The notes under the pieces were generated by a model. It saw only the letters and a program-made list of their open reading frames with translations, had not been told where the DNA came from and searched no databases. From a virus, in UHGV virus genome UHGV-1774420: 15,169 nt of DNA; one strand, given 5' to 3'. Shown here piece by piece: positions 392-3,455 of the stretch. The stretch's first letter is position 1. The number at the start of each line of letters is the position of its first letter. The translations under genes and the position numbers were made by a program.

Positions 392-409
392 TTTTTTCGG
401 AGAAAGGTG

Positions 410-772
410 ATGCGTGATATTCAGATGGTTCTGGATCGTTGGGGAGCATGGGCGGCGAGTGATAGTTCAGGAGTAGATTATTCTCCTATAGCTGCTGGGT
501 TTAAAGGGCTTCTTCCCTATACAAGCAAAACACGTCAGGCTTGTTCAGATAGTGATGCATTAATTATTGAAGGTTGTCTTGCACGTCTAAAGCAAAAAAG
601 ACCTGATGAGCATTCGCTTCTTGTGGCACATTATTTATACAGAATATCCAAGCGTAAGATTGCAAAGGCGCGTGGAAAGGATGAGAAACTAATACGCATT
701 GAGATACAGATGGCTGAGGGGTTTATTGATGGATGCCTTTCAATTCTGGATGTTAAACTTGAAATGGATTAG
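410..772 (+). CDS. Q: late-gene antiterminator Q (Phage_antitermQ family, DLP12 QuuD-like)
   Basis: Translation MRDIQMVLDRWGAWAA...GFKGLL...ARLK...AEGFIDGCLSILDVKLEMD closely matches my recollection of E. coli DLP12 QuuD (MRDIQMVLERWGAWAANN...). GGAG at 399-402 lies 7 nt before ATG 410; GTG at 407 is an alternative start. AT-rich (about 33-42% GC). Position before the lysis cassette fits Q. Confidence 0.8.
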   Translation: MRDIQMVLDRWGAWAASDSSGVDYSPIAAGFKGLLPYTSKTRQACSDSDALIIEGCLARLKQKRPDEHSLLVAHYLYRISKRKIAKARGKDEKLIRIEIQMAEGFIDGCLSILDVKLEMD

Positions 773-1648: not shown

Positions 1649-1737
1649 TGAAAAACTCACAAAAAAAGCTCAGAACCGTTGAGTAGACCCTAAATATTAT
1701 CTACGAACAGTGCTGAGCTGGTGACGCAATAATTAAC

Positions 1738-1840
1738 TATTGACATTTGCGTTGTCAACAAATTTTGCACTGTTTAAATGTAAATTTTTTCTGCTGTCAA
1801 CATATAGTGTCATCTTTGGCATGTTGACACTATATAAACG
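1738..1840. promoter_or_regulatory. repeat-rich intergenic control region; likely holds the late promoter (pR-prime analogue) and the divergent promoter of the NYN gene
   Basis: TTGACA at 1740-1745. TGTCAACA at 1753-1760 and 1795-1802, with its reverse complement TGTTGACA at 1822-1829. Inverted repeat ATATAGTGTCA (1802-1812) / TGACACTATAT (1826-1836) with a 13-bp spacer. TATATAAA at 1831-1838. No single unambiguous -35/-10 pair could be assigned by eye. Confidence 0.4.
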
Positions 1841-1901
1841 CTTACGCGGTCCGCAAAAATAATTGTATCATGTTAAGAGTGGTTACTTCGACTCCTTCCT
1901 T

Positions 1902-1927
1902 AAAACCGCAGTTGAGCGGTTTTTTTG
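1902..1927 (+). terminator. rho-independent terminator, candidate tR-prime
   Basis: Stem AACCGC (1904-1909) / GCGGTT (1916-1921), loop AGTTGA, then a T-run at 1920-1926. Lies downstream of the candidate late promoter and upstream of the first plus-strand late ORFs, as expected for a Q-dependent terminator. Confidence 0.6.
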
Positions 1928-2048
1928 TACCTGTAAACCTGGTGCAGTACAGTAAACACGCTGGTGGTCGTGAATACTGGCTTTTTATCTTGCTGGCTTT
2001 TTAGACAAGAGTTATTGGTATGTCATGTTAACCAGAAGGGAAAAAGAC

Positions 2049-2252
2049 ATGCTAAAACAGCAAGATATGACAGAAACCGCCGCCGTAGTCCTTCATTTCC
2101 TACCTGCTGACAAGTGGGTAACGCCACGCATGATGACGAGAACTACCGGAGTAAGCGAAGCCCGGTGCCAGTTAATACTGACTCAGTTAGTTCTGGCGGG
2201 TCTGGCGAAGGATAACGGCGGGTACGGGAATAAATTCAGACGCTGCCAGTAA
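2049..2252 (+). CDS. small winged-helix DNA-binding protein (FaeA-like), putative regulator
   Basis: 67 aa from ATG 2049, with AAGGGA RBS 7 nt upstream (the longer ORF from 2025 has no RBS). Segment TRTTGVSEARCQLILTQLVLAGLAKD resembles the recognition helix and wing of small FaeA-like regulators. Backbone-like GC content. Confidence 0.45.
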   Translation: MLKQQDMTETAAVVLHFLPADKWVTPRMMTRTTGVSEARCQLILTQLVLAGLAKDNGGYGNKFRRCQ

Positions 2253-2402: not shown

Positions 2403-3455
2403 ATGAAAAATACTGTAAAAATAAACAGTGTTGATTTAATCAACGCTGATTGCCTGCATTTTATTCAGTCCCTGCCTGATGATTCCATTGACCTGATTGT
2501 TACCGATCCGCCGTACTTCAAGGTGAAACCCAACGGCTGGGACAATCAGTGGAAAGGGGACGAAGATTACCTTAAGTGGCTGGACCACTGTCTGGCCCAG
2601 TTCTGGCGGGTGTTAAAACCTGCCGGAAGCCTTTACCTGTTCTGTGGGCATCGCCTGGCATCTGATATTGAGATCATGATGCGTGAACGTTTCAACGTGC
2701 TTAACCATATCATCTGGGCGAAGCCGTCCGGACGTTGGAATGGGTGTAATAAAGAAAGTCTGCGTGCATATTTTCCTGCCACAGAGCGCGTTCTGTTTGC
2801 TGAACATTACCAGGGGCCATATCGCGGCAAAAGTGACGGCTATGCGGCAAAAGAAAGGGAACTCAAACAGCACATAATGGCACCGCTGATATCGTATTTC
2901 AGGGATGCTCGTGCCGAACTGGGTATAACGGCAAAACAAATTGCCGAAGCCACAGGTAAGAAAAATATGGTTTCCCACTGGTTTGGTGCCAGTCAGTGGC
3001 AGTTGCCGAATGAGGCTGACTATCGGAAGTTACAGGCACTGTTTTCCCGTATAGCGGCAGAGAAGTTTCAGGAACAACAACTGGAACAACCACACCACCA
3101 GCTGGTGGCGTCTTATGATTCACTGAATCGCAAATATTCTGAATTGCTGGATGAGTTTAAATCTCTCCGGCGCTATTTCTCCGTATCAGTCTCCGTGCCT
3201 TATACCGATGTCTGGATGCATAAACCCGTTCAGTTCTACCCGGGTAAACATCCGTGTGAGAAACCGGCGGATATGCTCAGGCAAATAATCAATGCCAGTA
3301 GTCGACCTGGTGATCTGGTTGCTGATTTTTTTATGGGATCCGGTTCCACAATAAAAGCAGCAATGGCGCTGGGGCGTCGGGCCTTAGGTGTTGAGCTTGA
3401 GTCAGAGCGGTTTAACCAGACAGTGAAAGAGATAAACGAGCTGGTGGGGAAATAA
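2403..3455 (+). CDS. orphan N6-adenine (N6/N4 family) DNA methyltransferase, beta-class motif order
   Basis: DPPY catalytic motif near the N-terminus (LIVTDPPYF). AdoMet-binding FxGxG motif near the C-terminus ([13 protein letters not shown]). Central insert carries an HTH-like segment ([19 protein letters not shown]). No restriction endonuclease partner is seen nearby. Confidence 0.9.

Follow-up and report, generated by a model that had tools for sequence, protein, structure and literature searches.

In bacteriophage lambda, late transcription follows a simple logic, in which RNA polymerase starts at a constitutive promoter (pR'), pauses early at the sigma-dependent pause element AACGAT, and stops at a terminator to leave a 194-nt RNA (6S RNA), until Q allows it to read through. 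The lambda Q family (PF03589) is unrelated to the Q21/Q933W family (PF06530), the name of which comes from Yin et al. (bioRxiv 10.1101/651190). Within PF06530, Sy et al. (PMC7547250) used differential RNA sequencing (dRNA-seq) to determine where pR' starts in prophage Sp5 of Escherichia coli O157 Sakai and Term-seq to find where the StxS RNA (258 nt) ends, and they placed an RNase E cut (GU/AUU) at +173. In the passage of PMC7918800 that cites Rueggeberg et al. (2013), the lysis operon of DLP12, a cryptic prophage of E. coli K-12, is reportedly controlled by a phage Q-type antiterminator. The present analysis concerns a 15,169-nt stretch of the virus genome UHGV-1774420 (the window), which its gene order (open reading frames (ORFs), Pfam and RefSeq annotation) identifies as the region of late control in a lambdoid prophage of E. 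coli. Its subject is a 364-bp region (1661-2024), which lies between an inserted minus-strand gene, or moron, for a NYN-domain protein, to the left of which is a gene for a PF06530-type Q, and the late genes to the right.

On the evidence of sequence comparison, the 364-bp region can be regarded with good confidence as the junction of two independent control modules, the left one belonging to the NYN moron and the right one being pR'. The module boundaries were drawn in this way because phage records match the right part only, and the left part occurs only together with the NYN gene and this Q. Of 50,697 phage records searched by blastn with 1661-2024, 91 matched, each covering only the right part with a match start between 1831 and 1913, and the left part (1640-1870) matched no phage record. 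Among 5426 complete E. coli genomes, 27 carry the stretch 780-1860 (identity 98-100%), and the order is always Q, NYN gene, control region. The Stx2a phage Stx2_EH1846 has no insert, and its Q, which is 76% identical and of the same clade, stops approximately 45 nt short of the position that corresponds to 1878; relative to this phage, 1.07 kb of moron DNA stands in place of the last seven Q codons and the A-rich stretch ahead of the promoter, and homology returns at ~1842. Relatives with Q directly adjoining pR' lack the NYN gene, and other inserts occupy the same site elsewhere, namely two minus-strand ORFs (cdtI), one minus-strand ORF (mEp460_4F5), a plus-strand ORF (phiP27) or nmpC (DLP12). 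The insert is termed a moron because it is present or absent at one site among homologous phages and has its own predicted promoter and a hairpin (777-800).

A preliminary description of the window had proposed that two promoters probably lie in this region, a Q-dependent late one followed by a short terminated leader and a divergent one for the NYN gene, and both parts of that proposal are supported, by homology to Sp5 and by a promoter scan. It had sought the late promoter among the repeated TTGACA and TGTCAACA elements; alignment with Sp5 places it just to their right. The description had also passed over a minus-strand hairpin with seven T (1661-1719), the reading of two TTGACA copies as a dyad (inverted repeat 1, IR1), a second terminator-like site (t2) and a palindrome at 1846-1854.

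The right module (1842-2024) is very probably pR', the conserved late promoter that accompanies Q proteins of the Q21/Q933W family, as judged from its homology to the mapped promoter. Its features are as follows.

1842-1847, plus strand: weak -35-like hexamer TTACGC (spacer 18 bp); moron-free relatives are homologous from this point on
1846-1854: palindrome GCGGTCCGC, then an A-tract (1855-1859), at -32 to -24 of pR'; candidate Q-binding element
1866-1871, plus strand: pR' -10 hexamer TATCAT; the same hexamer in Sp5 lies 7 nt upstream of the mapped start
1873-1886, plus strand: invariant block TTAAGAGTGGTTAC (-5 to +9), which spans the start
1875-1880, plus strand: candidate sigma-dependent pause element AAGAGT, from resemblance to lambda by eye
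1878, plus strand: putative pR' start (A1878), transferred from the mapped Sp5 start
1902-1926, plus strand: terminator hairpin t1, AAAACCGC-agttga-GCGGTTTT (hairpin 1902-1923), with a T-run of 7 T
1960-1987, plus strand: second terminator-like site t2, from a terminator scan; strongly kept in all relatives

The module aligns without gaps to the region that follows Q in Sp5. The coordinates in PMC7547250 belong to an older version of the Sp5 record, and the start was therefore re-anchored by sequence landmarks at L010:946, which puts +258 on the last T of the terminator T-run (1203), +173 in GT/ATT (1118) and TATCAT at -12 to -7. Among ~60 distinct related sequences, the -10 place is occupied by TAnnnT in nearly all (TATGCT, TATCGT, TAATCT, TACTGT and others), the exceptions being CAGTAT, which has only the A at position 2 and the T at position 6, and TATTGC at one locus. 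The -35 is weak and out of register between promoter classes (in Sp5 it is TTTACG with a 16-bp spacer), which explains why pR' was missed by a consensus scan and by the preliminary description. The latter could assign no clean -35/-10 pair; with the dRNA-seq-mapped pR' of Sp5 as a guide, a clean assignment is possible. The TTGACA at 1824-1829 was rejected as the pR' -35, since CGGTCC lies 17 bp downstream of it and the hexamer is not kept. Both the core TAAGAGTGGTTAC and the palindrome GCGGTCCGC occur once in the window, and no second candidate promoter lies beside Q.

Downstream of the -10, the block TTAAGAGTGGTTAC is identical in all related loci, save that in Sp5 its first T is an A. By analogy with lambda, AAGAGT might be preferred as the pause element within this block, with TACTTC (+7 to +12) as the alternative. 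The t1 hairpin which follows has a folding energy of -10.1 kcal/mol (z-score -2.85) and a predicted product of ~47-50 nt; it was overlooked by the terminator scan because its T-run was counted into the stem. A hairpin with a T-run stands at this place in all relatives, either with a differing stem or with the hairpin replaced. Phages with a different Q of 250 amino acids (Ayreon, L002; mEp460; Stx2c phages) share the window only from 1913 on, that is from the descending arm of t1, and the t1 hairpin would thus be a recombination boundary between modules.

The preliminary description took the terminator at 1902-1927 as a candidate tR'. The hairpin and T-run are indeed present, as far as 1926, but the homologous hairpin in Sp5 is evidently read through, and t1 is maybe only part of tR'. 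An account in which t1 is not the effective tR', termination takes place chiefly at 1960-2003 or beyond, and t1 serves, for example, RNA stability or pausing, is possible, although on balance unlikely. It draws on the position of the Sp5 homologue (+25 to +52) inside the mapped 258-nt StxS transcript, the 3' end of which is at a downstream terminator; evidently this homologue is read through, from which it follows by analogy that t1 may be leaky and tR' composite. The t1 stem has only four G-C pairs and the sequence from 1928 to 2024 is highly conserved, including t2 and a perfect direct repeat CTGGCTTTTTA (1977-1987 and 1993-2003, 16 bp apart) that is kept in all relatives; t2 and this repeat together resemble the 3' end of Sp5 tR'. 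Against this account, seven T directly follow the t1 hairpin, and a hairpin with a T-run has been kept there in all relatives even where its replacement was non-homologous, which argues for selection on termination.

A candidate site for the recognition of pR' by its Q lies upstream of the -10. At each related locus a short palindrome followed by an A-tract is found at -32 to -24, directly after the -35 region, and eight palindrome classes were distinguished: GCGGTCCGC (the window), GCGGGCCGC, GCGTACGC, TACGTACGTA, TACGATCGTA, TACAATCGTA, GGAATTCC and TGTTATAACA. The upstream Q was located and its protein compared in 90 loci, a redundant sample in which 933W-like phages are under-represented because the search word had T, not A, at its first base. 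One Q clade accompanies each palindrome class, with no mismatched pair in the 90 loci, across 39 different Q-pR' distances (10-3048 nt) and differing downstream sequences. Identity between Qs is 54-99% within a class (67-99% without the two-member GGAATTCC class, at 54%) and 37-66% between classes of different half-sites. The Qs of the GCGGTCCGC class share 67-99% mutual identity and at most 60% with those of other classes, and three classes with the common half-site TAC(G/A) have Qs 75-85% identical to one another.

All loci of the GCGGTCCGC class have the ten bases GCGGTCCGCA, whereas the spacer and the -10 vary freely. On the protein side, the segment that varies most between classes (~78-103, ISKRKIAKARGKDEKLIRIEIQ in the window) is a helix-turn-helix, the start of which aligns with S93-K94-H95 of Q21, residues that touch DNA in the Q21 complex (structures 6p18/6jnx). 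The match of class to Q clade, the invariance within a class and the coincidence of the variable Q segment with the DNA-contact helix of Q21 make the palindrome GCGGTCCGC the best candidate for the Q-binding element. No paper defining a binding site for the Q933W subfamily was found, although absence from the literature searched is not proof.

As the preliminary description had noted, Q is separated from its target by the inserted moron. The distance from the Q stop codon to the start of pR' is 1106 nt. Its further statement that Q must act purely in trans holds true, but the arrangement is not unusual, given that this distance is 631-3048 nt in 77 of the 90 related loci, DLP12 included. In the latter the order is quuD, nmpC (minus strand, with IS5), a pR' of the TACGTACGTA class and essD. 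From older genetics, lambda Q is said to have a preference for acting in cis, which is the sole reason why the separation might matter. The gap between Q and pR' is a frequent site of accessory-gene insertion, with a Q that tolerates 0.6-3 kb of separation.

The left module (1661 to ~1841) contains the promoter and leader of the NYN gene, together with the repeats listed in the preliminary description. Its features are as follows.

1661-1722, minus strand: NYN leader RNA (predicted start ~1722), with a hairpin at 1719-1667 (53 nt) and a U-run at 1667-1661 (seven T in DNA)
~1729-1736, minus strand: predicted NYN promoter -10 TTAATTAT (TAATTA or AATTAT), spacer 17-18 bp
1740-1758: dyad IR1, TTGACA-N7-TGTCAA, the right half of which (1753-1758, minus strand) is the NYN -35; candidate operator
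1753-1758, minus strand: predicted NYN promoter -35 TTGACA, kept in relatives
1795-1802, plus strand: second direct copy of TGTCAACA, lineage-specific
1802-1812 and 1825-1835: inverted repeat 2 (IR2), ATATAGTGTCA, 12 bp, TGACACTATAT, with perfect 11-bp arms

All the repeats listed in the preliminary description are present in the sequence, and they cluster beyond what shuffling produces. The 8-mer TGTCAACA lies at 1753-1760 and 1795-1802 on the plus strand and at 1822-1829 in inverted orientation, and these are its sole three copies in 15,169 bases (0.69 expected); TATATAAA is at 1833-1840. TTGACA also occurs at 1740-1745, and four of its eight copies in the window fall inside 90 bp. When the window was shuffled 2000 times with dinucleotides preserved, four TTGACA per 90 bp arose once and three TGTCAACA per 80 bp never; for 5000 shuffles of the AT-rich 364-bp region alone, the counts were again 1 and 0. 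The repeat cluster is non-random.

Conservation was assessed by comparing the DNA upstream of the NYN gene with that of three loci (L141-L143), with NYN proteins 85-86% identical, and of more distant loci. Only the TTGACA at 1740 and the TGTCAA at 1753-1758 are kept in L141-L143; at 1795-1802 these relatives carry TATTGATA or TATTGATT instead of TGTCAACA, and at 1822 the sequence is unrelated. The 8-mer repeat is on this comparison in part a real dyad over the NYN promoter and in part lineage-specific, since two TTGACA copies are kept and the copies at 1795 and 1822 are not. The 8-mer is not a conserved motif, and the conservation of the repeats in related prophages, which the preliminary description had named as a check, is limited to the two halves of the dyad. 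An A/T-rich block upstream of the NYN promoter is also kept in relatives.

The kept TGTCAA serves, in the reverse orientation, as the -35 of the best promoter predicted by the scan (TTGACA-18-AATTAT, 10 of 12 consensus matches), and relatives have TAAATT or TAATTT at the same -10 place. Other leftward promoters (ATGACA-18-AAAAAT, and one on the TTGACA at 1800-1795) were set aside because their hexamers are not kept in L141 and L143, and the TTGACA at 1740 was dismissed as a rightward -35, the downstream TTTTGC being no usable -10.

The dyad IR1 has a single perfect match in the window, and both halves are kept in L141-L143, with a 7-bp spacer that varies in sequence. An N6 form occurs in L147 and L148 (52% protein identity), and TTGAC-N3/N6/N12-GTCAA in some Pseudomonas loci. 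A search of the window and of 20 kb upstream, the early region of the prophage included, gave no further copy. The prophage repressor was rejected as a partner of the dyad, given that the CI/Cro intergenic operators differ (CTAAG-N6-CTTAG), and a LexA box (CTGT-N8-AGTG) at 1794-1809, seen by eye, was rejected because its right half is wrong. In the copy of the same prophage in strain CREC-629, the immunity region (L151, 5524-5620) has operators of the CTAAG-N6-CTTAG type between genes for a Cro-like protein and a LexA-family repressor.

A reading of the TTGACA cluster as overlapping or decoy sigma-70 -35 hexamers, which would tune polymerase between the divergent promoters with no dedicated regulator, is rather unlikely. 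That the best predicted promoter has one copy as its -35, that TGTTGACA is a good extended -35, and that no partner protein was found (the CI/Cro operators being of another type) would all suit such a role; but no -10 lies at a usable distance from the plus-strand copies at 1740 and 1824, the TGTCAA in the promoter spacer is conserved although spacers need not be, and the TTGAC...GTCAA dyad recurs in distant lineages. The kept pair of half-sites over the NYN promoter is a candidate operator.

The transcript from this promoter would begin with a structured leader, the U-run of which ends 12 nt ahead of the NYN ATG (1648). Its hairpin folds at -24.5 kcal/mol (z-score -2.8), and the leader is near-invariant among morons whose NYN proteins differ by 15%. 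A homologous hairpin with a U-run precedes NYN homologues of 48-55% identity in Pseudomonas, Endozoicomonas, Bacterioplanoides, Ewingella and Edwardsiella, and the leader occurs in several orders of Gammaproteobacteria. RNAalifold on 14 leader sequences gave 16 pairs, 12 of them with compensatory changes; paired cells make up 96.4% of the leader alignment, against 77% in shuffles (0 of 500 reach the observed value) and 25-52% with slid partners. The loop AAU.GUUAG (AAUAUUUAG in the window) is kept.

The simplest reading of this structure is that of a terminator-type attenuator that would hold the nuclease gene low. No alternative antiterminator fold or ligand was identified for the leader, and the kept loop hints at a binding partner. 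Rfam returned no match above threshold for the leader; the sub-threshold hits, STnc130 (25.5 bits, gathering score 55), isrK (12.7) and RNAI (13.1), were rejected as their alignments cover the terminator hairpin alone. No paper describing a NYN-associated RNA motif was found, which for the literature searched is not proof of absence. In Firmicutes and Bacteroidota, more distant NYN homologues have a leader of another type, which contains an inner CCCC-ACCAUAA-GGGG hairpin. The NYN protein was not accepted as a known defence gene, the PADLOC matches being weak (E ~5e-4). The NYN morons of the Edwardsiella-like loci L141 and L142 adjoin TATCATGTTAACAATGACTACTTCG, a diverged sequence resembling pR' in which no palindrome is obvious.

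Between the NYN promoter and pR' lies IR2, described earlier as an 11-bp inverted repeat at 1802-1836; it is present and perfect, with its end at 1835. It folds at a z-score of ~-3.5 on either strand, and its centre is ~59.5 bp upstream of the pR' start. This position would suit a moron-supplied regulator site modulating pR' in the manner of a class I activator or repressor near -60, through which the moron would be linked to late transcription. Such a role is improbable. The distance from the right arm to the pR' palindrome is the same in the window and in L143, and complementarity is kept through changes in both arms in L141 and L143 (ATTTGGTGT / ACACCACAT in L143), but the spacer ranges between 12 and 20 bp, moron-free relatives have a pR' that works without such an element, and no candidate binding protein was found.

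The proposal that the TGTCAACA 8-mers are operators for a phage regulator controlling the late or the NYN promoter, with the small ORF at 2049 as the candidate, is very unlikely, for although the 8-mers are strongly clustered and the ORF product has faint matches to MarR_2 (E 0.15) and TrmB (E 0.18), the ORF and the adjoining methylase gene occur in 91 phage records without the repeats, the repeat DNA is found only alongside the NYN gene, two of the three 8-mers are not kept in morons with 85%-identical NYN proteins, and the ORF has no significant family match. The preliminary description called this ORF FaeA-like; it has no FaeA match and no other Pfam or NCBIfam match at E < 0.01, only faint winged-helix-like Pfam matches at E 0.07-0.18 (DnaD_N in addition to those named). 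It is not inherited with the repeats and belongs to the other module, which makes it an unlikely regulator of them. The conspicuous TTGACA repeats appear to be a property of the inserted gene and not of late control.

Taken together, these features suggest the following sequence of events. On the left, a sigma-70 promoter (-35 at 1758-1753, -10 at ~1736-1729) would fire leftward under a candidate operator, IR1, and the leader hairpin and U-run would probably stop most transcription ahead of the NYN gene by attenuation. On the right, RNA polymerase would start at approximately A1878 using TATCAT and the weak -35, and without Q its transcripts would end at t1 or t2. Upon induction, Q made from the gene 1.1 kb upstream would bind promoter DNA, most likely at the palindrome GCGGTCCGC, and load onto polymerase paused in the invariant early block. 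The Q-modified polymerase would then pass the terminators and go on to transcribe the small ORF, the methylase gene and the genes for lysis and the head.

Several points weigh against this scheme. The placement of pR' in the window prophage derives from homology to Sp5, its -35 is poor, and the promoter scan made no call there. Both AAGAGT and TACTTC are weak matches to a -10 and no pause hexamer candidate matches well, and the apparent readthrough of the t1 homologue in Sp5 bears on termination at t1. The association of Q with palindrome class could partly be linkage, as the pair is never more than 3 kb apart. Furthermore, the solved Q21 site is not a palindrome, being a direct repeat of TGAGCA (two copies at -25 to -12, with C at -21 and -13; 6p18, 6jnx), and a different binding geometry would be needed at -32 to -24. 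In the left module, the IR1 dyad is absent from Ewingella and its spacing varies elsewhere, and IR2 has no assigned role.

A combined proposal is put forward only tentatively: that the NYN leader is an undescribed RNA family, extending from Enterobacterales to Pseudomonas and Endozoicomonas and perhaps gating a potentially toxic nuclease, and that short (~120 amino acids) Q933W-type Qs read a class-specific palindrome at -32 to -24, unlike the direct repeats of Q21. Should Q bind at the palindrome, sequence could serve to predict which Q is compatible with which promoter, including between co-resident Stx prophages, and there would be a readable specificity code for the activation of late genes and of Shiga toxin. 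If the leader is a regulated attenuator, it would be a new cis-regulatory RNA tied to a prophage-carried nuclease family. The value of the analysis lies chiefly in annotation, since pR' can be placed to the base here and in many DLP12- or Stx-like prophages with genes inserted after Q.

The genes and other features that surround the control region are as follows.

11-391: DUF968 gene, 3' end
407-772, plus strand: antiterminator Q gene (121 amino acids), Q21/Q933W family, full-length Pfam PF06530 match (E 8.9e-52)
777-800, both strands: GC-rich hairpin where the convergent Q and NYN genes meet; its loop contains the NYN stop codon
785-1648, minus strand: gene for the NYN-domain protein (287 amino acids), the inserted moron (Pfam NYN, E 1.4e-9)
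2049-2252, plus strand: small ORF (67 amino acids), first gene of the late transcript, from RefSeq annotation
2403-3455: DNA methylase (PF01555), after the small ORF

The hairpin at 777-800 has a folding energy of -17.9 kcal/mol on the plus and -17.2 kcal/mol on the minus strand, with equal folding in 0 of 200 shuffles, and is predicted to be probably a two-way terminator. RefSeq annotation of the NYN gene is identical across the 27 E. coli genomes. Beyond the methylase, the plus strand carries a P21-type holin, lysozyme and head genes or large ORFs, in the same orientation as pR'. No tRNA genes were found, and the small ORFs at 1740-1862 and 1870-2004 have no Pfam family matches; the 1870-2004 frame, annotated as "hypothetical protein" in some phage records, is disrupted by indels of 1-2 nt among relatives. 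The window DNA is found at 100% identity in strain CREC-629, where the prophage sits at thrW, adjoining proA. The CREC-629 copy has early genes of the yfdN-yfdT and ymfL-like types.

Among known systems, the pR'-StxS-tR' cassette of Sp5/933W is alike in having a Q of the same Pfam family (47% identity), the same -10 TATCAT, a palindrome with an A-tract at the same position, a near-identical early block, (A/T)TAAGAGTGGTTAC, and a hairpin with a T-run at +25 to +50. It differs in that the Sp5 promoter overlaps the 3' end of Q, with 22 nt from stop codon to start compared with 1106 nt in the window, in its palindrome (TACGATCGTA as opposed to GCGGTCCGC), in ~170 extra nt ahead of the mapped tR', and in the loss of the small ORF and most of the methylase. 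By eye, the Sp5 sequence after tR' (L010, 1204-1260) matches the 3' end of the window methylase (~3350-3400), so that a deletion seems to have removed the small ORF and most of the methylase from 933W-like phages.

The pR' of phage 21 (Q21; 6p18, 6jnx) shares with the window a PF06530 Q, a Q site between -35 and -10 with two-fold repetition, a sigma-dependent pause and a terminator, the site and the pause being candidates in the window. However, Q21 has 162 amino acids and a long helix-turn-helix loop, whereas the window Q has 121 and is a distant match to the Q21 structures (E 0.0065), and the Q21 site is the direct repeat TGAGCA-N2-TGAGCA at approximately -25 to -12, whereas the window element is an inverted repeat at -32 to -24. 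DLP12 is alike in its PF06530-type Q, its opposite-strand moron, its pR' core (of the TACGTACGTA class) and its lysis genes; it differs in carrying a porin gene (in K-12 together with IS5) as its moron and not NYN, in the palindrome class, and in having no small ORF or methylase before the holin gene. With lambda pR' and 6S RNA the likeness is one of logic. A MAFFT comparison of the window with lambda pR' gave no meaningful alignment, and by eye the early transcribed AACGAT-GGG-TTAATTCG of lambda corresponds to AAGAGT-GG-TTACTTCG in the window, shifted by 4 nt relative to the start. Overall, the region is an ordinary example of a known late-control cassette, to which a class-specific palindrome that tracks the Q clade and a structured NYN leader are possibly new additions.

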